Shown here piece after piece: positions 2,488 through 45,507 of a stretch of DNA of 64,000 nucleotides. A model generated the notes under the pieces. That model saw nothing but the letters and a program-made list of their open reading frames with translations. It did not search any database and was not told the DNA's origin. Position numbers and translations under genes: made by a program. Origin of the DNA: Planctomycetota bacterium (GTDB lineage Bacteria; Planctomycetota; MHYJ01; JACPRB01); the NCBI GenBank assembly GCA_016209705.1, contig JACQVR010000094.1, positions 64 through 64,063 on the forward strand, in the 5' to 3' direction. The stretch's first letter is position 1. Each line of letters begins with the position of its first letter.

Positions 2488-2988
2488 TTATTTCTTCTTT
2501 TCCCCGTCCTTTTCTTGCGACGGCTCCACGAACGAGACGTCGTGCTTCTTGAGGATGTCCCGGAACTTGGCTTCCAGCTCCGCGGCGGACGTCACGCCCT
2601 TTCTCCCGCGATAGGGAATCGCCTCGTGGATTTTCTTGTCGGGTGAGACGAGCCACAGGATCTGTCCGCCGTTCCAGCCGTCGGTCTCTTTCCAGAGCTC
2701 CGGCTCGATTTTTTCGCCCTTCTTGCGGGGCGTCCGGGGATGCCACGTCAGGACGGGGTAGAAATTCGTTTCGATGACCTTCTTGATCCGTTCGTCGAGA
2801 AGCGAACCGTTCTCGAATTTCTGGCAGGACGGTCAGCGCGGCCATTCTTTGTAGATGAGGACCCATCGCGACGTCTTCTCGTCCTGGGCCTTCTCGAAGG
2901 CCTCCTCGGACGACATCCATTTGATCTCGTCGATCCGATCGCCCGCGGCGACCGCCGCCGCCATGCCCAACCAGAGCATCGTCTTCAT
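2488..2988 (-). CDS. Secreted thioredoxin-fold (Thioredoxin_7/DsbD-gamma-like) protein with an in-frame TGA (complement 2833-2835) at the first position of a U-P-S-C (UxxC) redox motif. Candidate selenoprotein.
   Basis: The gene starts at ATG 2988, preceded by a GGGGG RBS, and encodes a signal peptide MKTMLWLGMAAAVAAG. Translation continues ...IKWMSSEEAFEKAQDEKTSRWVLIYKEWPR-TGA-PSCQKFENGSLLDERIKK... through to TAA at 2488. The segment after the TGA has no start codon of its own. Confidence 0.55.
2795..2816 (-). promoter_or_regulatory. Candidate bacterial SECIS hairpin, 16 nt downstream of the TGA at 2833-2835.
   Basis: Sense strand reads UCGAGAA-CGGUUCGC-UUCUCGA. This is a 7-bp perfect stem whose apical loop contains GGUUC. 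Confidence 0.4.
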
Positions 2989-3157: not shown

Positions 3158-3976
3158 TCAAACTTCAATGTGCTCCGCGCCGGTGTAGATGTTGAACGCG
3201 TCGGCGCGCAGGAAGCCGACCAGCGTCATCCCGGCCTGCTGGGCTATTTCGACGGCGAGGCTGGACGGCGCCGACACGGCGCAGACGGCGGAGATGCCCG
3301 CCATCATCGCTTTCTGCATGATCTCGAAGCTCGCGCGGCCGCTGACCATGAGGATGTGGCGGTCGAGCGGCACTCTCCCGTTAAGAAACATGGAACCGAT
3401 CGCCTTGTCCGTGGCGTTGTGCCGCCCGATATCTTCCCGCAGGACGAGCAGCGTACCGTGCGCGTCGAAGATCCCCGCCGCGTGAAGGCCGCCGGTGCGC
3501 TCGAACACGGTTTGAGCCTTGCGCAAGGTCTGCCCCAGGGAATAGAAAAACTCCAGCTTCAACCTCAGCTTGGAATTGGTCGGCTTCACTTCCATCTTGA
3601 TGTTTTCGATGGCCGCCTTTCCGCAGATGCCGCAGGAGCTCGTCGCGTAGAAGTTCCGCTTGAGCCGGGAGAGATCCACGGAAACGCCGGCCGCCGGCGT
3701 CACGTTGACGATGTTGCGCAGATCCGGATGCTTTTCGTCCTGGCAATACCGCAAGGCGCCGATGTCGTCGGGTGACTTCAGAATTCCTTCGGTGAACAGG
3801 AATCCGGCGGCCAGATCGAAATCTTCACCCGGCGTGCGCATGGTCACGACGACGGGTTCGTCATTGACGCGAACTTCCAGCGGCTCCTCGACGGCGAGCT
3901 CGTCGAGGTCCTGCTCGTGAGGTATGCCCTGCTCGATCTTCCGAGTGCCGTGCCGGGCGATGCGCGGTGACGTCAT
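3158..3976 (-). CDS. fdhD: Formate dehydrogenase accessory sulfurtransferase FdhD.
   Basis: A GRHNATDKAIG motif is present. The size and sequence are typical of the FdhD/NarQ family. Confidence 0.85.
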   Translation of the reverse strand: MTSPRIARHGTRKIEQGIPHEQDLDELAVEEPLEVRVNDEPVVVTMRTPGEDFDLAAGFLFTEGILKSPDDIGALRYCQDEKHPDLRNIVNVTPAAGVSVDLSRLKRNFYATSSCGICGKAAIENIKMEVKPTNSKLRLKLEFFYSLGQTLRKAQTVFERTGGLHAAGIFDAHGTLLVLREDIGRHNATDKAIGSMFLNGRVPLDRHILMVSGRASFEIMQKAMMAGISAVCAVSAPSSLAVEIAQQAGMTLVGFLRADAFNIYTGAEHIEV

Positions 3977-3996
3977 GTGTTCTCCCGCGCGCCATT

Positions 3997-6246
3997 CTAA
4001 TCAATCTTGGAAATGTCCACCACTACGTTGTAGTCGGGTTCGCACGACACGGGATCGTACCGGCGCGGAATGAGCACGTTCGCTTCCGGCCAATGCAGTT
4101 GCAACGTTCGAGGCCGCACGGGCGCGATGAAGACGCGGCCCATGAACTCGCCGGCACCCGAGCGCAGCCTGACCCGGTCGCCTTCGACGCATCCCAGCTC
4201 GCGCGCGTCTTCGGCGCACATGAAGACTGCCTCGCGGGCCGCCCGTCCCGTCAAAGGATCCCGCCGCGACTGGACCATCGAATTGAATTGCTTGCCGCGC
4301 CGCGTCGTGACCTGGAACTTGCCCTCCGGCAGATCCCGCCTCGGAATCTCCTGGACCCACATCCGGGCGCGTCCCCCGGGCATGCGGTCGAACGTTCCGC
4401 CTTCGAACAGGCGTTCGCCCCCCCATTGGACCGAATCCCCTTCGTTCCGGAGCGACGCGACGCCCTTGTAGAACGGAACCGCCCGCTCGATCTCCTCGCG
4501 CACTTCCTGCGGATGGCGATACGGGACCAGCCGCTCGAACCGGGGATCGACCTTCCGCGCCAGAAGGACGGGGATCTCCCACTCCGCTTTCGCCTCGCCG
4601 ACGCGCGGGCCGGGAACTTCGGGACTGAAGCGGATGCGCCGCTCCGTCGACGTCGCCGTGCAGCCGCCCGGCTGCTCGTAGCGGGTCATCGCCGGCAGGA
4701 GCACGACCAGATCGCCGTCCAGGAGGGTCGAGGTATTCACCACGATGTCTTGGTGCAGGCGCACGCCGATCCGGCCGATCGCTTCGCGGACGTAACGGCG
4801 GTCGGGCATCGTCTCGAGAAGGTTGCCCCCGATGTTGTACAGAAAATCGATCCGTCCCTCATGGGCGGCCTCGATCATGTGCGGCGTCGCCAACCCCCGG
4901 CGCGCGGGCACCGGAGCGCCCCACAGCGATTCCAGTTCCTTCGCCGATTCCGCGGTGATCGGGCGGCCGCCGGGGAACTTGTCCGGAGCCAGTCCCACCT
5001 CCGCGCCGCCCTGCACGCCGCTGTGGCCGCGGATGGCCATGACGCCGCACTTCTCGCGGCCCACCATGCCGCGCGCCAGCGCCAGCGTGCCGATGGAGCG
5101 GACGTTCCGGACGCCGAACTCGGATTGCGTCAGACCCATGCTGTAGACGAAGACGGCGGTCTCGGCCTCCTTGTAGATGGAGGCGAAGCGCGCCATCTCG
5201 GACCGCGGAAGTCCGCTCTCGCGCTCGAGTTCTTCCCACGCCATCGCGTCGAGCCGGGCCATGGACTCCTCGACGCCGGCGCCGTGGCGCTGGAGGAAAT
5301 CGAGGCGGAAGCCGTACATCTCCTTCAGCGCCTTGAGCGTTCCGTTCGCGAACGCGATGTCGCCGCCGATGCGGACGGCATAGTAATCGTCCATGAGGCG
5401 GGTGCCGAAGAGCGCGCTGCCCGCCACCGAGGGCACCCAGTATTTCTCCAGCCCGGGCTCGCGAAACGGGTTGACGACCGCCACCCGCGTGCCCTGCTTC
5501 TTCGCGTAATGGATGTACTTGGTCGTGACCGGCTGGTTGTTGGCCAGGTTCGTGCCCCACAGCACGAGCAGGTCGGTCCCGATGAAATCTTTCAGCGAGC
5601 AGTTCGGCGCGCCGACGCCGAAGATGTCCGCCAAACCGTAGGTGGACGGCGCGTGGCACAGGCGGGCACAGTAGTCGACATGCGGGCTTCCCAGCAGCCG
5701 CGCCACCTTCTGGAAGGTGTAGTAGGCCTCGTTGGTCAGACCGCGGGACGTGGCGAACCACGCCATGCGATCGGGATCGGTCTTCCGGAGTCGTTCCGCG
5801 ACGGTCTCGAGGGCTTCGTCCCAGGATACGCGGCGGAATCCGCGCTCCCCGCGCCGCCGCACGAAGGGATACGGCACGCGGCCGAGCGCCTGGAGCTCTT
5901 CATTGCGCAGCTTCCGAAGCGCCTCGACGTCCTCGAGCACGGCGGGGTCGAAGGCCGGCATCGTATTGAGGCGCAGGAGCCGAAGCCTCGTGGTGCACAG
6001 ATGGACGCCGTTGATGACGTCGTCCTTGAGCCCGTACGGACCCAGCGAGCAGCCGTCGCAGACGCCGTGGCGCAGGATGTTCCACGCGTACTTCAGGCTG
6101 TCGCGGTTCTCCCACGCGACCTTGAGCATTTCCGTGAAATGGCGCGGCTTGCGGCGGGCGCCGATGCCGAATGGCAGCGCTTCCAGGAACGTCCGGGTCG
6201 GCTTTTGGAGCGGCCGTTCCGGCGGCGGTCCGATGCGGGGATTCAT
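3997..6246 (-). CDS. Molybdopterin oxidoreductase alpha subunit, FdhF/YdeP family, Cys-type.
   Basis: The N-terminal Cys cluster reads HGVCDGCSLGP. The active-site region reads RLCHAPS, corresponding to E. coli FdhH V-U-HGPS but with Cys instead of Sec. The preferred start is ATG 6246 (MNPRIGPP); the track start at 6288 is TTG. Confidence 0.8.
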   Translation of the reverse strand: MNPRIGPPPERPLQKPTRTFLEALPFGIGARRKPRHFTEMLKVAWENRDSLKYAWNILRHGVCDGCSLGPYGLKDDVINGVHLCTTRLRLLRLNTMPAFDPAVLEDVEALRKLRNEELQALGRVPYPFVRRRGERGFRRVSWDEALETVAERLRKTDPDRMAWFATSRGLTNEAYYTFQKVARLLGSPHVDYCARLCHAPSTYGLADIFGVGAPNCSLKDFIGTDLLVLWGTNLANNQPVTTKYIHYAKKQGTRVAVVNPFREPGLEKYWVPSVAGSALFGTRLMDDYYAVRIGGDIAFANGTLKALKEMYGFRLDFLQRHGAGVEESMARLDAMAWEELERESGLPRSEMARFASIYKEAETAVFVYSMGLTQSEFGVRNVRSIGTLALARGMVGREKCGVMAIRGHSGVQGGAEVGLAPDKFPGGRPITAESAKELESLWGAPVPARRGLATPHMIEAAHEGRIDFLYNIGGNLLETMPDRRYVREAIGRIGVRLHQDIVVNTSTLLDGDLVVLLPAMTRYEQPGGCTATSTERRIRFSPEVPGPRVGEAKAEWEIPVLLARKVDPRFERLVPYRHPQEVREEIERAVPFYKGVASLRNEGDSVQWGGERLFEGGTFDRMPGGRARMWVQEIPRRDLPEGKFQVTTRRGKQFNSMVQSRRDPLTGRAAREAVFMCAEDARELGCVEGDRVRLRSGAGEFMGRVFIAPVRPRTLQLHWPEANVLIPRRYDPVSCEPDYNVVVDISKID

Positions 6247-6273
6247 AACGCAATTGTAAGAATCACCTTCAGA

Positions 6274-6298
6274 ACCACCAAGGCACAAGGTTGGTGGT
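6274..6298. repeat. Small hairpin ACCACCAAGGCACAAGGTTGGTGGT (8-bp stem). The CACCAAGG motif family is shared with the MITE-like element at 18515-18718.
   Basis: A perfect inverted repeat accaccaa/ttggtggt with a 9-nt loop. It lies in the divergent intergenic region between ydeP and the antitoxin gene. Confidence 0.4.
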
Positions 6299-6364
6299 GA
6301 AGAATGATCCGGGGTAAACGTTCATCTTGATCCTCGTCCCGAATGGTTATAACATAGTTCTTAT

Positions 6365-6604: not shown

Positions 6605-6993
6605 TGCCGATCTTCTACCCCCCGGCCGTGGCCTTGCTCTATCTCCACGAGCAAGTCATCCGCGAATTCGGAGGATCCGGCGGATTGCGGGACCGCGGAG
6701 CTCTCGAAGGCGCAGCCGCTCGTCCCCGCGCGACGTTCGGCGGCCACCCCTTGTACGCGACGCTCCCCGAAAAGGCGGCGGCGCTCCTCGAGTCGATTTG
6801 CGTCAATCATCCTTTTGTCGACGGAAACAAACGCGTCGCGTTTTCCGCCGCGGGTCTTTTTCTCCAATACAACGGCCGCACGCTTGCGTGCGAAGAGGAC
6901 GAGGCGGTCGAATTCATGCTCGGCGTCGCGGCGGGGAAGCTCAGGAAAGAAGAGATCCGCATCTGGCTCCAGGAACACTCCCGCCCGCTCTGA
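6604..6993 (+). CDS. doc: Doc (death-on-curing) family toxin with a Fic-fold kinase.
   Basis: The HPFVDGNKRVA motif is present. It is 129 aa and translationally coupled (TGATG) to the upstream antitoxin. Confidence 0.85.
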   Translation: MPIFYPPAVALLYLHEQVIREFGGSGGLRDRGALEGAAARPRATFGGHPLYATLPEKAAALLESICVNHPFVDGNKRVAFSAAGLFLQYNGRTLACEEDEAVEFMLGVAAGKLRKEEIRIWLQEHSRPL

Positions 6994-22306: not shown

Positions 22307-23062
22307 ATGAGAACGCTGCTTCGGCTCAGCTTCGGGGTGGCGCTGACCGCGTCAGGCTGCCATTTCCGATCGCAGGATGACCCAGCCCAGGAGCCCCGCG
22401 CGGCGGCCGCAGCCGTCGCGAACATCCCGGCTCTCGACCGACAAATCCCCGATGTTCTCGAATCCGCCACATTCGCGGTCGGCTGATTCTGGGATGCGGA
22501 CGCCCGGTTCGGGACCGTCCCCGGCGTCGTGCGCACGCGCGTGGGATACGCCGGCGGAACGCTCGCGAATCCCGCCTATGACCACATAGGCGACCATCTC
22601 GAGGCGATCCAGATCGACTACGATCCGTCGCGAGTCACGTACGAGGATCTCCTGGATCTCTTCTGGGAGATCCATGATCCCTGCCCGCCGCGCTGGACCC
22701 GCCAGTACATGTCCGTCATCTTCACGCACAACGAGACGCAACGGGAACTCGCGGAGGGATTCAAGGCGCGCGAGGACGCCCCGGGCGCGATCATTCCGAC
22801 CAAGATCCTCCCGTTGACCCGGTTTTATCCGGCGGAGGACCGTCATCAAAAGTACGTGCTGCGTCAGATAGAAGAGCTGATGCGGGAGTTCCGCGCCATG
22901 TATCCCAGGGAGGCCGACTTCGTGAATTCCACGGCGGCCGCGCGCGTCAACGGATTCGTGGCCGGCCTCACCCTAGCGGAACGGATCGAAGCGGTGATCG
23001 ATCAATTAGGGCTTTCTCCCGAGGGTCGGCGACTGCTGCGATCCTTCGCCCTTCCGCAGTGA
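22307..23062 (+). CDS. msrA: Peptide methionine sulfoxide reductase MsrA lipoprotein with in-frame TGA (22484-22486) at the catalytic Cys position. Candidate Sec-MsrA.
   Basis: A GGGAGG RBS precedes signal/lipobox MRTLLRLSFGVALTASGC. Translation continues ...ESATFAVG-TGA-FWDADARFGTVPGVVRTRVGYAGG... (GCFWG becomes GUFWD). The rest of MsrA, including DPCPPRW, is in frame through to 23062. Confidence 0.7.
22498..22520 (+). promoter_or_regulatory. Candidate bSECIS hairpin, 11 nt downstream of the msrA TGA.
   Basis: GGACG-CCC-GGUUC-GGG-AC-CGUCC folds as a bipartite stem with an apical loop GGUUC. Confidence 0.45.
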
Positions 23063-29341: not shown

Positions 29342-29410
29342 CCTGGAGCTCGAAGGCGCTCCGATCCGATCTATTGCACAATTCCCCCTCCCTCCCTATC
29401 CTGTCCCTTC

Positions 29411-30400
29411 ATGACCGTCGAAGAACAAGCGCGCCGATTTCGCGAGGGCATCGAGCGGCTCCGCAAGGAGATCGGCAAGGTGATCGTGGGCCACGAGGAC
29501 GTGGTGTCGCAGGCGATCATCACGATCCTGTCCGGGGGCCATGCCCTGCTCGAAGGGGTTCCGGGCATCGGCAAGACGCTGCTGGTGCGCACGATCAGTC
29601 AAAGCCTGAGCCTGCGCTTCTCGCGCATCCAGTTCACGCCCGACCTCATGCCGGCGGACATCCTGGGCACGAACATCGTGGTGGAAGATCCCAGCGGGCG
29701 GAAGAGCTTCCAGTTCCAGAAGGGCCCGATCTTCGGCCATATCATCCTGGCGGACGAGATCAATCGGGCCACGCCCAAGACCCAGTCGGCGTTGCTGGAG
29801 GCGATGCAGGAAAAAGCGGTGACCGTGAGCGGGCAGCGCTATCCCCTGGAGGAACCGTTCTTCGTGCTGGCGACGCAGAACCCCATCGAAATGGAAGGAA
29901 CCTATCCCCTGCCCGAGGCCCAGATCGATCGCTTCTTCTTCAAGATCGAAGTGAAGGCGGCGACGCTGGCCGGGCTGCTGGAGATCATCGATCGCACCAC
30001 CGGCCGCGAGATTCCTTCCATTTCTCCCGTACTGCGCGGGGAGGATATCCTGGCGATGCGCGCGCTGGCGCGCGAGGTTCCCATCGCCTCCCACGTGAAG
30101 GAGTACGCCGCGCGCCTGGTCCTGGCCACGCATCCCACCGAGGGGGGAAGCGACGTAGCCCGCAAGTACGTCCGCTACGGGTCCAGCCCCCGCGGCGTCC
30201 AGGCCCTGGTGCTCGCGGGAAAGATCCTGGCGTTGATGAAAGGACGCTACAACGTGGCCTTCTCGGACATCCGCGAGGCCTCCTACCCCGCCTTAAGACA
30301 CAGATTGATCCTGAACTTCGAAGCGGAGGCCGAAGGCGTCCGGCCCGACCAGATTCTCGGCCGGATCCTCGAAAAGACGCCCGACGCCATCCCGGCCTAG
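29411..30400 (+). CDS. MoxR-family AAA+ ATPase.
   Basis: Walker A GVPGIGKT and Walker B ILADEINRA are present. The size (329 aa) is typical. Confidence 0.85.
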   Translation: MTVEEQARRFREGIERLRKEIGKVIVGHEDVVSQAIITILSGGHALLEGVPGIGKTLLVRTISQSLSLRFSRIQFTPDLMPADILGTNIVVEDPSGRKSFQFQKGPIFGHIILADEINRATPKTQSALLEAMQEKAVTVSGQRYPLEEPFFVLATQNPIEMEGTYPLPEAQIDRFFFKIEVKAATLAGLLEIIDRTTGREIPSISPVLRGEDILAMRALAREVPIASHVKEYAARLVLATHPTEGGSDVARKYVRYGSSPRGVQALVLAGKILALMKGRYNVAFSDIREASYPALRHRLILNFEAEAEGVRPDQILGRILEKTPDAIPA

Positions 30401-34990: not shown

Positions 34991-35012
34991 GTTTTGAAAA
35001 TTATTTGTAACA
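34980..35012. promoter_or_regulatory. AT-rich operator B. It is one GTTACA-N22-TGTAACA dyad with a TTTTGAAAA core, overlapping the epimerase stop and directly upstream of selenoprotein candidate 3.
   Basis: Sequence is TGTTACAATAAGTTTTGAAAATTATTTGTAACA. It follows the same grammar as operator clusters A and C. Confidence 0.45.
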
Positions 35013-35074
35013 CCTACGAAGGGCCGCCCGGCCGGTGTCTAAGCTGGAGATCCCAACTCCAGGAGATGAACGTC

Positions 35075-36718
35075 ATGAAAAAATTAGGTGGAGCCCTTCT
35101 TGCGGGCCTGGTGTGCTTGAGTCCTCTTTGGGCTCAGCAGGAAGATCTGAGGTCTATCGAAAAGGACCTCAAACAGGGACTTAAGGCCCAAGCCGAACGG
35201 GAAGTGGAAAAAGCCGTTCAAGCGCTGCACAAAATCAACACGCCGGAAGCGGTAAAAGTCCTGCTGAGAGGGTTGCGGGAACGCCTGCTCCCCAGCACGT
35301 ACTGGATCCTGGTCCGCGGAGCCGCCGCCTTCTCTTCCCCCGACGCCTTGGGCGAAGTCACCGGCTACATCCTCAAATACAAGCAGACTCCCGTGGCGCG
35401 CGACATGGCGGCCGCGTTGCATGGAAATTGGACGCCCGCGTGCGAAGGCGCGCTCATCGCGATTCTGAACAAAGGGACGCCCGAACTCCAAGCGCTCGCC
35501 ACCGAGCACCTGATGGAAGTCGGCGCCAGGGATGCGGTGGAAGCGGTCCTCGCGCTGCTGAAAAAAGGCCGTCCCGGCCCGGACCTGTCCCGCAGACTGT
35601 TCCGCGTTCTCTCCGTGATCACCATCGGCGACTACGGAGACAGCCTTTCCAACTGGGAGGGCTGGTGGGAGGCGAACAAACACAAGGACTGGGGCGAACT
35701 CAAAGCCAAAGAAGGCCCCGGCTATCGCAGCGGAGGAGGAACCGTCACCGACAGCCTCGACAAAGCGCGCGATAAGGAAGTCGAGCAGCTCAAGAAAGGG
35801 AAAGTCCTCGTGCTGGGCGCGGGTAACAAATGCAAGGACGGGAAAAACCACGATCTGGATCGTATCGACTCGCTCATCAAGAAGATGGATCTTCAGGTCG
35901 ACTTCATCGACAAGATCGAGTTCTGCAAACCGTCATTCAAAGTCGACGATTACCTCTCCATCCTCTGCAACTGCACGTTCATCGAGGAACACTGCATCTG
36001 CCCGACTTGCAAACGCGGGCCGCCCGGAGACAAGCGCCGATTCCAGTGAGCGGGCTGCGACAAGCATGAAATAGTACGGTACGTACTAGATGAGGCCGGG
36101 CTGAACAAGATCCGCAAATATGTCGACGACGGGGGATATCTCTTCACCGAAGACTGGTGTCTCAAGGAAATCCTGGCGGCCAAGTTCAGCGAATTCGTCA
36201 ATCTGGGGCCGTATCTTCCCGAGATGAACGTCCCCATCTTCCCCAAACCGGGCGCCGGAACCCATCCCTACCTGCGGCGCATTTTCACGCGCCATCCGAA
36301 AGACCTCCGGCGCGGAGAAACGGGCACCGAGGAAGAGTTCGAACGGCTCACGCACGAGTGGAAGATCGACAACGAGAGCCCAGCGATTCGGATCACGAAC
36401 AAGCAGGCCGTCACCGTGCTGGTCTACTCCACGGAGGTGGGCAAGAAAGCGGGAGCGGAAGGAAGCGACGCGGTCGCGATCACGTTCGCCGTCGGCGCGC
36501 GGGGACCCGAGGCTAAAGATCCGGTGGCGACTGGCAAACCCATCGAGCAGGACCGGGCCAAGATGAGCGGCGGGCGGGTCCTGCACGTCATGAGCCACTT
36601 CGGCAAGCAGAAATCGGTCTCCGACGAGTACACGATCCAGAACCTGCTGCTGAACTTTCTGATCGAAGCCAGCGAGCGCCGCGGGTTTCAGAAGGAAGCG
36701 GCTCAGAAGAAGAAATGA
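35075..36718 (+). CDS. Secreted HEAT-repeat protein with a C-terminal Cys-rich GATase1/DUF4159-like region, read through an in-frame TGA (36047-36049) at a U-A-G-C (UxxC) motif. Candidate selenoprotein.
   Basis: RBS AGGAG precedes signal peptide MKKLGGALLAGLVCLSPLWA and HEAT-like repeats. Translation continues ...CNCTFIEEHCICPTCKRGPPGDKRRFQ-TGA-AGCDKHEIVRYVLDEAGLNKIRKYVDDGGYLFTEDWCLKEIL... in the same frame with no further stop until 36718. The segment after the TGA has no in-frame ATG until 36224, which would cut into the conserved GGYLFTEDWC block. Confidence 0.5.
36072..36088 (+). promoter_or_regulatory. Candidate bSECIS hairpin, 22 nt downstream of the TGA at 36047.
   Basis: UAGUAC-GGUAC-GUACUA is a 6-bp stem with apical loop GGUAC. 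The other two candidates carry GGUUC. Confidence 0.35.
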
Positions 36719-44209: not shown

Positions 44210-45037
44210 TTACCGGGCTTTGTGCCGGTACCACCACGTTCCATCCAAGATCCCCAGCGCCGCGAGAAGATCCAGTCCGACCGAACCGCATCCGCCGCCT
44301 CCGCTCTCCGAGCTCCCGCTCGACCCTCCCGTCGGTCCGCCATCGCCTCCGTTCCCGCCCCCTTCTCCACCGCCGCATCCGCCTTCCCCGCCGACCTGAT
44401 CCGCGCCGGTATCTTTTCGATCCACGCGAACCGTGAAATCGACGCGCTCGTCGATAACTTCCTCTTTTTCGATCCGGGCCAGCAGCGCCTCGTCGAGACG
44501 GAGCAGTCTTTTGGCTTTGATGTATTCGACGTTTTCGCGATAGACCGCCACGAGATCTTCTTCCGCCAGTTCGCCTTCTTTGATGAGCTGGTTCAGGATC
44601 TTTTCCGGAGCCGACGGATCGCGCATCTGGCCGGGGTGCACGTGGAGCGCGTGGAGGTAGCCGCGGATCAAGGCGCGGATCTTTTGATTCGGCGCGGGCG
44701 GCGGAGCCTTTTCTTCCGCCACGCGTTCCTCGGAACGGCGGGAAGCATCCGGAGATTCGTCACGCTGAATCGCGAAACTCCAGACGATCAGGATCGTGGC
44801 GGCAAGCAAGGGGAAAACCAGGTATCTCAACAGGCGCTTTCGCGGGCCGGCGAAGTTCGCCGGACGGCCGCTCATCTTTTCGAAGAGAAGCGCTTCCTCG
44901 CAGGATGCTTCGATCATTTTCCGGGCCAGGCCACGATCCCGTTTCAGCCGCGCCGTGAATTCCGTCTCTTCGTCCGCGTCGAGCTGCGCATAAAGGGCGC
45001 GCAGGATGAGGTCGTCGGCGGCGGTCCTCGTGTTCAT
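44210..45037 (-). CDS. Putative anti-sigma-like single-TM membrane protein with a Gly/Cys-rich C-terminus.
   Basis: An N-terminal cytoplasmic domain is followed by TM LVFPLLAATILIVWSFAI. The C-terminal low-complexity region reads GGEGGCGGGEGGGNGG. It lies directly downstream of the sigma fragment. Confidence 0.4.
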   Translation of the reverse strand: MNTRTAADDLILRALYAQLDADEETEFTARLKRDRGLARKMIEASCEEALLFEKMSGRPANFAGPRKRLLRYLVFPLLAATILIVWSFAIQRDESPDASRRSEERVAEEKAPPPAPNQKIRALIRGYLHALHVHPGQMRDPSAPEKILNQLIKEGELAEEDLVAVYRENVEYIKAKRLLRLDEALLARIEKEEVIDERVDFTVRVDRKDTGADQVGGEGGCGGGEGGGNGGDGGPTGGSSGSSESGGGGCGSVGLDLLAALGILDGTWWYRHKAR

Positions 45038-45440
45038 GATTCGTTCGCTCCCCATTCCGAGCTTTCGACCTTTCGGTTGACGCAATCACGAATCGCCAGG
45101 CGAACGCGCTTCAGGAGCGCGTACGTCGCCTGCACGGTCTTCCCGATCGATCCGGCGATTTGCGGCACGTCCAGGGCCGAACCGTAGCGCAAGGTGATGA
45201 TCTTGCGGGAAAGACCGCGAAGGGACTTCATTCACTCGTCCAGCGCCGCGCACCGTCGTTCGATGTAGGAGGTTTCATCGACTTCCTTCGCGGCTTCGGC
45301 GAGTTGATCGAGCACTTCGGGATCGACGGTGACGAAACCGGCGCGACTCTTCTTGAAGAAATCCAGGATGGAGCGCCGGGCGATTTCGCGGATCCACGCA
45401 CGGAAATTGAGGATCGGCCCCTGGCGTTCCCATTGAGCAT
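45034..45440 (-). pseudogene. ECF sigma factor remnant. It is N-terminally truncated, and region 2 and region 4 are separated by an in-frame TGA.
   Basis: The frame reads ...WERQGPILNFRAWIREIARRSILDFFKK...AALDE-TGA-MKSLRGLSRKIITLRYGSALDVPQIAG.... There is no start codon or region 2.1/2.2 between it and the upstream gene end at 45508. Confidence 0.5.
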
Positions 45441-45507
45441 TCTTTTTTCCTCTGCGAAACGCCGGTTTATTCGACAGCGCTTATCCGGTCTCCTCCCTGG
45501 AAGGAGC

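Follow-up and report, generated by a model that had tools for sequence, protein, structure and literature searches.

An in-frame UGA that very probably encodes selenocysteine in a planctomycete gene for a predicted exported HEAT-repeat and GATase1-like protein

We analysed a 64,000-nucleotide stretch (the window) of contig JACQVR010000094.1, from the metagenome-assembled genome (MAG) of a Planctomycetota bacterium. The gene considered here starts at 35075, is interrupted by a TGA at codon 325, and is annotated as ending there. A preliminary description, made from the letters of the window, had proposed that this UGA is read through, joining a secreted HEAT-repeat domain to a GATase1/DUF4159-like region as a selenoprotein. 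The homologs of the joined protein, a hairpin resembling a selenocysteine insertion sequence (SECIS) and the exchange of codons among orthologs all support that interpretation. We conclude with high confidence that the gene genuinely encodes selenocysteine (Sec) and that its product is one protein of 547 residues rather than two annotated pieces.

Bacteria are known to insert Sec through SelB, which, together with GTP and Sec-tRNA(Sec), binds the tip of the SECIS hairpin while the ribosome is at the UGA. By the same mechanism, the UGA at 36047-36049 is very probably decoded as Sec, aided by the hairpin at 36072-36088: the SelB-GTP-Sec-tRNA(Sec) complex would bind the hairpin, and the ribosome would insert Sec and continue. 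The product would be an exported protein of 547 residues that carries a signal peptide, HEAT repeats and a ThuA/GATase1-like alpha/beta domain, with Sec325 placed in an H-C-x-C-x-x-C ... U-x-x-C-x-x-H insertion next to E359-D360 on the putative active-site face.

A single frame runs from ATG 35075 to the TGA at 36716-36718, and the TGA at 36047-36049 is its sole interruption; 324 codons precede this UGA and 222 come after it, so that the joined product of 547 residues includes one Sec codon. The first open reading frame (ORF) ends with ...CICPTCKRGPPGDKRRFQ (also written ...HCICPTCKRGPPGDKRRFQ) before the TGA, and the frame resumes as AGCDKHEIVRYV...GGYLFTEDWC... (also written AGCDKHEIVRYVLDEAGLNKIRKYVDDGGYLFTEDWC...) for 222 sense codons. 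The in-frame continuation noted earlier is therefore present, at one codon fewer than the 223 given for it. The earlier ORF, 34994..36049, likewise has its end in the right place, but the likely start is ATG 35075 (MKKLGG...; MKKLGGALLAGLV...) and not TTG 34994, in agreement with the NCBI annotation. That annotation (P0001, 'hypothetical protein HY716_12140', Planctomycetes bacterium MAG) comprises the first 324 residues only and ends at 36049. The motif around the TGA reads CxCxxC...U-x-x-C, the Sec-x-x-Cys placement after a CxCxxC cluster that had been described. No ATG, GTG or TTG occurs in frame from 36050 until ATG 36224 in the ORF listing of the window, so that a separate downstream gene would be 58 residues short and would lack the invariant H331, GGY and ED; the predicted loss of the GGYLF(T)EDWC block from such a gene thus holds. 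The 222 downstream codons are intact and conserved and have a coding pattern of GC content at third codon positions (GC3). The gene therefore shows what is looked for in a bacterial selenoprotein gene, an in-frame UGA flanked by coding sequence that is conserved before and after it.

To find homologs we used the joined 547-residue protein as the query, with Cys written for the TGA, and 54 relatives were returned. Full-length proteins (518-604 amino acids) make up 44 of these, nearly all covering 94-100% of the query, and every one of the 44 has Cys at the TGA column. C325 is among just 32 positions that are invariant in a 43-sequence alignment, the others including C307, R321, H331, G353-G354-Y355 and E359-D360. 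Five shorter relatives (322-343 amino acids) end in ...R[RVL]FQ, at the same endpoint as the annotated window protein. On the contigs of all five there is a TGA at that codon, followed by 216-232 conserved in-frame codons. The preliminary description had asked whether single-domain homologs span the TGA with a Cys, and had held that its reading would be refuted if the two halves were always separate genes. The homologs do span it, and the Cys forms are never split.

We then surveyed one genome per GTDB species, which gave 80 loci with 85 gene copies. The loci are labelled nearly all as Planctomycetota MAGs, with a few labelled only 'bacterium' and one Bacillota, and the family is confined to Planctomycetota in the searches made. 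At residue 325 the codon is TGC in 46 copies and TGT in 23 (Cys in 69/85) and TGA in the remaining 16, which represent 12 distinct loci; TAA and TAG do not occur. The 12 TGA loci (the window, L001, L003, L004, L006, L007, L009, L016, L043, L058, L077 and L086) are independent metagenomic or MAG loci, and each has at least 216 in-frame codons past the TGA. When 1.8 billion cluster representatives were searched exhaustively with a profile, 222 members of the family were recovered at E <=1e-30. Among the best 150 representatives, 14 stop exactly before column 325 (...RRFQ, RLFQ, RLFT, RMFP etc.) and three more (P0139, P0169 and P0182) end in ...REH, ..LDH and ..KKH, right before the invariant C307. 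Several listed 'proteins' of 200-230 amino acids match the C-terminal part of the family profile only, and we take these, by their profile match, to be orphaned C-terminal halves of split genes.

Repeated interconversion of Sec and Cys at neighbouring positions is a hallmark of real selenoprotein families. In a neighbour-joining tree of 80 gene copies, the Sec forms are spread over four or more clades (the window with L009, L001, L003 and L004; L006; L007 with L016; and L043 with L058, L077 and L086), and the Cys forms are nested among them, requiring a minimum of five changes by Fitch parsimony. The comparison of TGA with TGC among orthologs that had been suggested thus reveals exchange at this codon. 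Sec is also present at other positions in relatives. L076 has U at the C307 position (TGA at 6874; KDH-U-HGAEC) together with Cys at 325, and L043, L077 and L086 have U-x-U where their relatives have C-x-C. In L043 and L086 the loop that follows strand 1 contains an extra in-frame TGA (ITDT-U-APEKPW), which brings the number of Sec per protein to three; the TGA positions are 6526 and about 6772-6780 in L043, and 2148 and about 2394-2402 in L086. Each of these TGAs that was folded (C307 in L076 and the beta1-loop in L043 and L086) is followed after 24-30 nucleotides (nt) by a hairpin with a G-first triloop, which for the first TGA of L043 and L086 is GGCGCC-GG(C/U)-GGCGC(C/U), e.g. GGCGCC-GGC-GGCGCC. 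The repeated exchange at neighbouring sites indicates that the Cys/Sec cluster is the functional center of the protein.

Two side observations concern the family's copies and the codons at the site. The family is multi-copy in some Planctomycetota MAGs, with tandem paralogs in L024 and L032 and at least five copies in one MAG, JAZDFP (L024, L026, L030, L065 and L080; six counting the L024 tandem). In the JAZDFP members and the tandem paralogs, the CxCxxC part has degenerated to CCSxEH-type motifs. The codons before the UGA are TTC-CAG (Phe-Gln) in eight close-clade TGA loci (the window, L001, L003, L004, L006, L007, L009 and L016), which may be a codon-context preference for Sec insertion; F-Q is also found in some Cys forms, and many others have YQ, RR, VR, FS, FK or FT.

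A 17-nt hairpin, UAGUACG-GUA-CGUACUA (36072-36088), begins 22 nt past the TGA. It had been drawn earlier with 6 bp and a GGUAC loop, which is equivalent to the 7 bp and GUA triloop used here. We scored it against the bacterial SECIS (bSECIS) constraints of PMC13188914 (Fig. 2, with the Zhang and Gladyshev consensus as summarised there): an upper stem of 4-16 bp topped by an apical loop of 3-9 nt, a G within the first two nucleotides of that loop (typically G[G/U]N inside a closing base pair), a spacing of 16-37 nt between UGA and loop, and a minimum free energy (MFE) of -7.5 kcal/mol or lower. The hairpin of the window agrees with 4/4 constraints, having a 7-bp stem, a GUA loop closed by G-C, a UGA-to-loop distance of 29 nt and an energy of -7.9 kcal/mol. 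Across the family, 9/12 Sec forms satisfy this model as compared with 6/68 Cys forms (Fisher p=3.7e-6), and the region from nt +10 to +56 has a mean MFE of -12.8 kcal/mol in Sec forms and -7.6 kcal/mol in Cys forms (Mann-Whitney p=2e-4). The suggested search for a SECIS element thus found one that conforms to published constraints and is enriched in TGA over Cys forms.

The hairpin is also built from codons that the window otherwise avoids. It lies in the codons ATA-GTA-CGG-TAC-GTA-CTA, and in a reference of 12,516 codons from Pfam-supported genes of the window, ATA accounts for 3.3% of Ile codons, GTA for 3.1% of Val codons and CTA for 0.9% of Leu codons. The only ATA, the only CTA and two of the three GTA codons of the gene all fall within these 18 nt, and the joint probability of this synonymous choice, given the peptide, is about 6e-8. 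Hairpins of different sequence are found at the equivalent place in L001 (CCCACACG-GUA-CGUG(A)UGGG), L009 (GAGCACGA-GUU-UCGUGCUC) and L006 (ACAUACC-CGUGA-GGUAUGU). Because the hairpin tracks the TGA, is assembled from rare codons and is kept elsewhere with a differing sequence, we conclude that it is under selection. The Cys form L010 (TGC; about 2544-2610) keeps the hairpin GACGGCGAAGUACGUC of its sister Sec form L004 (5701-5763), which resembles a fossil SECIS left behind by a recent change from Sec to Cys; L012, sister to L010, has lost the hairpin.

Two other genes of the window also encode selenoproteins, both of classical families. In an MsrA gene, a TGA replaces the catalytic Cys of the GCFW motif (..ATFAVG-U-FWDADARF) and the stop splits the gene; a hairpin, CCCG-GUU-CGGG, lies about 16 nt downstream. 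The other, which runs from ATG 2988-2986 to a stop at 2490-2488, encodes a thioredoxin-like protein in which the Pfam Thioredoxin_7 match covers the UxxC site; it is probably a selenoprotein of the thiol:disulfide-oxidoreductase type, and its downstream hairpin is UCGAGAACG-GUU-CG(C)UUCUCGA. The hairpin tips of the three genes (CCG-GUU-CGG in MsrA, ACG-GUU-CG in the thioredoxin-like gene and ACG-GUA-CGU in the target) have CG-GU(A/U)-CG in common, as would be expected if one SelB recognised them all. Elsewhere in the window TGA acts as a normal stop and is the commonest stop codon; a sigma-54 gene, for example, has its terminal TGA at the end of the Pfam domain. Since TGA terminates ordinary genes at the ends of Pfam domains, the code is not reassigned. 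selA/B/C/D have been reported in Planctomycetes (PMC4807772, Table S8), as have MsrA-, thioredoxin- and peroxiredoxin-type selenoproteins (PMC4807772, Table S9).

Several results weigh against recoding to Sec. The window hairpin is short and of modest energy (-7.9 to -9.3 kcal/mol), taken alone it is not significant against shuffled sequences (z about -1.1), and three of the 12 Sec forms (L043, L058 and L077) fail the strict bSECIS model, the downstream hairpin of L043 being below its thresholds. RNAalifold on eight Sec forms gave a weak consensus of -1.4 kcal/mol; this weakness follows from hairpins in slightly different registers, which is why each sequence was scored separately. No SelA, SelB or SelD was found by Pfam annotation of about 50 ORFs from the window, and no selC or tRNA-Sec was detected in the window, where ARAGORN gave only a tRNA-Arg; a scan of the whole window at Rfam gathering thresholds also returned only the tRNA-Arg. 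No tRNA-Sec was found in the flanks of 12 scanned loci (11 with TGA at codon 325, and L076). The support for Sec incorporation is wholly computational, and this, together with the Sec machinery unseen in 64 kb, accounts for our residual doubt.

The most conventional alternative is that the TGA is an ordinary stop between two genes, one for the 324-residue HEAT protein and another for a downstream GATase1-like protein. NCBI and other gene callers annotate this split, and the frequency of TGA as a stop in the window fits it. However, the downstream gene would have to start at ATG 36224 and so would lose 58 conserved residues, including H331, GGY355 and E359-D360, whereas the Cys-form homologs are all single polypeptides; moreover, the stop falls on an invariant Cys, is always TGA and is accompanied by a SECIS-like hairpin of rare codons. 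We consider two genes very improbable. It is equally hard to credit that the TGA arose as a nonsense change from TGC or TGT in a decaying gene, or as a sequencing or assembly error, even though a single substitution turns a Cys codon into TGA, errors do occur in MAG assemblies and the window has one probable TGA-interrupted pseudogene fragment (an ECF sigma factor, 45037-45480). Twelve independent assemblies, which differ in sample and clade, share this TGA, as do 14 more cluster representatives, the 222 codons beyond it are intact and conserved with a coding GC3 pattern, and hairpins co-occur specifically with TGA. The UGA could also be read through without Sec, by a near-cognate tRNA (Trp, Cys or Arg) or under a reassigned code; leaky UGA read-through exists in bacteria and the Sec machinery was not directly observed. 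This too is highly unlikely, given that TGA ends ordinary genes of the window at Pfam domain ends, that a site-specific SECIS-like hairpin recurs in the MsrA and thioredoxin-like UxxC genes, that alignment to an invariant Cys is a Sec signature, and that Sec machinery is known in the phylum. The best-supported interpretation of these results is that UGA 325 is a Sec codon.

The N-terminus of the Sec protein, MKKLGGALLAGLVCLSPLWA-QQ, looks like a signal peptide of the general secretory type, and the N-termini of homologs are similar. The HEAT domain of the preliminary description is probably a repeat domain of the HEAT (PBS-lyase) type, with the Pfam HEAT_2 match (E=1.7e-5, 25.4 bits) falling just under the cutoff of 27.7. 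The family profile matches alphaRep/HEAT chains of the PDB down to 1e-14, and its only matches there are HEAT/alphaRep. An AlphaFold2 (AF2) model of the Cys homolog P0002, which is 57% identical to the window protein, has a mean predicted local distance difference test score (pLDDT) of 83 and a predicted template-modelling score (pTM) of 0.84, and its residues 20-208 form an all-helical solenoid with pLDDT above 90.

The C-terminal domain is GATase1-like, as had been suggested, at the level of fold. Its likeness appears to be to ThuA-like and class I glutamine-amidotransferase-like proteins (PDB 4jqs, 1t0b, 2gk3 and 3rht), and also to DUF4159, IFT52-N and the GH42 trimerisation domain. Pfam DUF4159 (PF13709) and GATase gave no match at E up to 1, and Pfam ThuA (PF06283) was not matched in sequence either; the earlier DUF4159 label therefore does not stand, the likeness to that family being one of fold class and of a GGxLxxxD-type motif. 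Strand 3 is separated from the helix that leads into the GGYLFTEDW strand by an insertion that reads N299-C300 ... H306-C307-x-C309-x2-C312 ... R321 ... U325-x2-C328-x2-H331. C307, R321, C325 and H331 are invariant, the conservation of C300, H306, C309 and C312 is 90% or higher, and the loop is of low confidence in the P0002 model. Strand 4 consists of GGYLF and runs into the invariant E359-D360. True amidotransferases have a nucleophilic Cys at this elbow. From the topology of the modelled fold, E359-D360 would occupy the position of that elbow, and the elbow strand GGYLFTEDW has no Cys, so that, with no Pfam GATase match, the domain does not qualify as a catalytic GATase1. If this correspondence is right, the Sec loop, the strand-1 loop (site of the third Sec in L043 and L086) and E359-D360 would converge on the canonical active-site face.

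By analogy, the selenol of Sec325 would most likely be the reactive atom of a periplasmic redox or metal center, with the HEAT repeats possibly serving as a binding scaffold. As a redox center, U325 would form a selenylsulfide with C328 or C307, analogous to UxxC oxidoreductases; as a metal center, it would be part of a Cys/Sec/His soft-metal site. We give these two possibilities roughly equal weight. In distant branches, CxCxxC ... CxxC becomes FCQSPGH ... C-xGP ... H, with C312 replaced by His and C307, C325 and H331 remaining invariant, and this degenerate pattern, which looks like ligand swapping, favours the metal site. A metal site is likewise favoured by the apparent lack of a twin-arginine signal in the N-terminal sequence, which speaks against a cofactor that is assembled beforehand, for instance an Fe-S cluster. 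The protein may represent a Planctomycetota-specific class of exported selenoenzymes, with a poly-Cys/Sec/His center of up to three Sec on the ThuA/GATase1-like face, a HEAT arm and a novel periplasmic chemistry; we put this forward tentatively, at somewhat less than even odds. The functional proposal draws on motif, topology and analogy only, and the gene neighbourhood of the 80 loci offers no conserved functional partner, with synteny that is clade-specific only; both points tell against it. In the window clade, a deoxyhypusine-synthase-like gene comes first, then an epimerase and in some cases an exported 1-Cys redoxin-like protein, followed by the target and an E1 dehydrogenase. In the marine clade, a CarboxypepD_reg protein and a 788-residue protein with no Pfam match are followed by CoaD- and RidA-like genes, as read by eye.

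Alternatively, Sec325 might be one of the ligands in a zinc ribbon (CPxC ... UxxC) of structural role, and so be neither catalytic nor redox-active. The knuckles C309-P-x-C312 and U325-x-x-C328 resemble those of a zinc ribbon, Pfam Zn_ribbon_16 matches weakly (E=0.14), and a zinc-ribbon selenoprotein of the FmdB family (UxxU) is listed in a 2026 review (PMC13188914). However, C309, C312 and C328 are lost or replaced in the distant branches (FCQSPGH ... C-xGP) in which C307, C325 and H331 are invariant, and the conserved core is therefore not a four-Cys ribbon. Sec is also costly, and its repeated gain, at up to three positions per protein, speaks for reactivity rather than scaffolding. We regard the structural role as unlikely, and favour a reactive Sec325.

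The gene resembles bacterial selenoprotein genes with an intragenic SECIS, such as E. coli fdhF, in having an in-frame UGA aligned to Cys in homologs, a coding-region hairpin with a small G-first apical loop 16-37 nt from the UGA, and frequent Sec/Cys exchange. It differs from catalogued genes in that its family is outside the 119 prokaryotic selenoprotein families and subfamilies of PMC13188914 (Table 1, May 2026), none of which has this architecture, and in that no NCBIfam selenoprotein model matched. In NCBIfam release 20 (June 2026), the target had only a noise match (LarC2, E=0.06), and in Pfam, which has no model for the family, only the sub-cutoff HEAT_2 match. The family is not mentioned in deep-Sep or BSepDB, and a literature search gave no description of it. 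The earlier judgement that this is not a recognised selenoprotein class agrees with these results. Planctomycete selenoproteomes (PMC4807772, Table S9) are from the same phylum and include MsrA and thioredoxin-like families that match the two other genes of the window, whereas no HEAT or ThuA-like selenoprotein is described there. The recoding mechanism is thus standard for bacteria and the protein family is uncatalogued in the catalogues checked, with the hypothetical candidate IMG 2643311185/6 (PMC4807772, Table S9) left uncompared.

Unlike ThuA/GATase1-like proteins, the target has 40 residues rich in Cys, His and Sec inserted after strand 3, bears HEAT repeats and a signal peptide on its N-terminal side, and, as judged from topology, would carry E-D in place of a Cys nucleophile at the elbow. 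The CTP-synthase C-terminal-related family (GxUxG) is the only listed selenoprotein with a GATase1-type fold. Its Sec takes the place of the Cys at the nucleophile elbow, whereas in the target Sec is in an inserted Cys-rich loop, and NF004836 is not matched. The FmdB-family UxxU protein, the metal-binding UxxU protein NF041115 and MbdU (PMC13188914) are similar in having Sec within paired CxxC-type knuckles, and some are multi-Sec. These are small stand-alone proteins, whereas the target motif is inside a 547-residue exported two-domain protein, and no model matches it.

Coordinates of the target gene, its parts and the two other candidate selenoprotein genes of the window
Feature	Position	Strand	Basis
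Very probable complete selenoprotein gene, 547 codons + terminal TGA	35075..36718	+	Single frame; full-length Cys homologs cover 94-100%
Predicted Sec (general secretory)-type signal peptide MKKLGGALLAGLVCLSPLWA	35075..35134	+	KK n-region, hydrophobic core, LWA motif, read by eye
HEAT (PBS-lyase type) repeat domain, residues about 21-210	35135..35704	+	Pfam HEAT_2, PDB profile matches, AF2
C-terminal alpha/beta domain, class I glutamine-amidotransferase-like (ThuA-like) fold, residues about 238-547	35786..36715	+	
Cys/His-rich insertion between strand 3 and helix before GGYLFTEDW strand	35969..36067	+	Conservation; AF2 loop low confidence
Very probable Sec-encoding UGA, residue 325	36047..36049	+	Aligned to invariant Cys; TGA at same codon in 12 independent loci
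Candidate bacterial SECIS hairpin	Stem 36072-36078 / 36082-36088, loop GUA 36079-36081	+	Agrees with bSECIS constraints; rare codons
True stop codon TGA	36716..36718	+	Homologs finish at same place
MsrA selenoprotein gene	22484-23062, TGA 22484-22486	+	FAVG-U-FWDADARF; Pfam PMSR 4e-34; TIGR00401
Exported thioredoxin-like UxxC protein, 166 residues joined	2988-2488, TGA 2833-2835	-	YKEWPR-U-PSC-QKF; Thioredoxin_7 27.2 bits

Other TGA codons of the window were considered and set aside. FdhD and a molybdopterin oxidoreductase of 774 residues form a formate-dehydrogenase-like pair (3158-6321, minus strand) with no coding sequence upstream of the preceding TGA; the oxidoreductase (3997-6321, minus strand) was rejected as an FdhA selenoprotein, having no in-frame Sec codon. 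A MoxR-type AAA+ ATPase (29342-30400, plus strand) is in the same frame across the TGA of the sigma-54 gene, and these are two genes, with Pfam domains that end and begin at the stop. A fragment resembling an ECF (extracytoplasmic function) sigma factor, identified by eye on the minus strand, has a TGA at 45232-45234 (..RRCAALDE*MKSLRGL..), adjoins a DUF4143 ATPase and a Fic protein and apparently lacks the N-terminal region 2; it looks like a pseudogene remnant and not a selenoprotein.

In the split loci examined and in the truncated database entries, the gene is called as two 'hypothetical proteins', and among the best 150 cluster representatives at least 17 are truncated at a Sec codon. Recognition of the family corrects the annotation of Planctomycetota MAGs from groundwater, soil and marine samples. 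It would add to the prokaryotic selenoproteome a member outside the usual thioredoxin-fold and known-enzyme set, and a rare selenoprotein with a GATase1-like fold, carrying a HEAT domain, predicted to be exported and having Sec at four alternative positions. The CG-GU(A/U)-CG tip common to the three hairpins of the window could seed a lineage-specific SECIS model for planctomycete selenoproteins. Through the repeated gain of Sec, C307, C325 and the residues near them stand out as the functional center of an uncharacterised family, which provides a starting point for biochemistry. New selenoprotein families are still found regularly, and the mechanism itself is unsurprising. What is unusual here is the combination of fold, predicted export, phylum-wide spread, systematic mis-annotation and a multi-site, multi-Sec pattern, which by analogy may point to an unfamiliar periplasmic chemistry in these bacteria.

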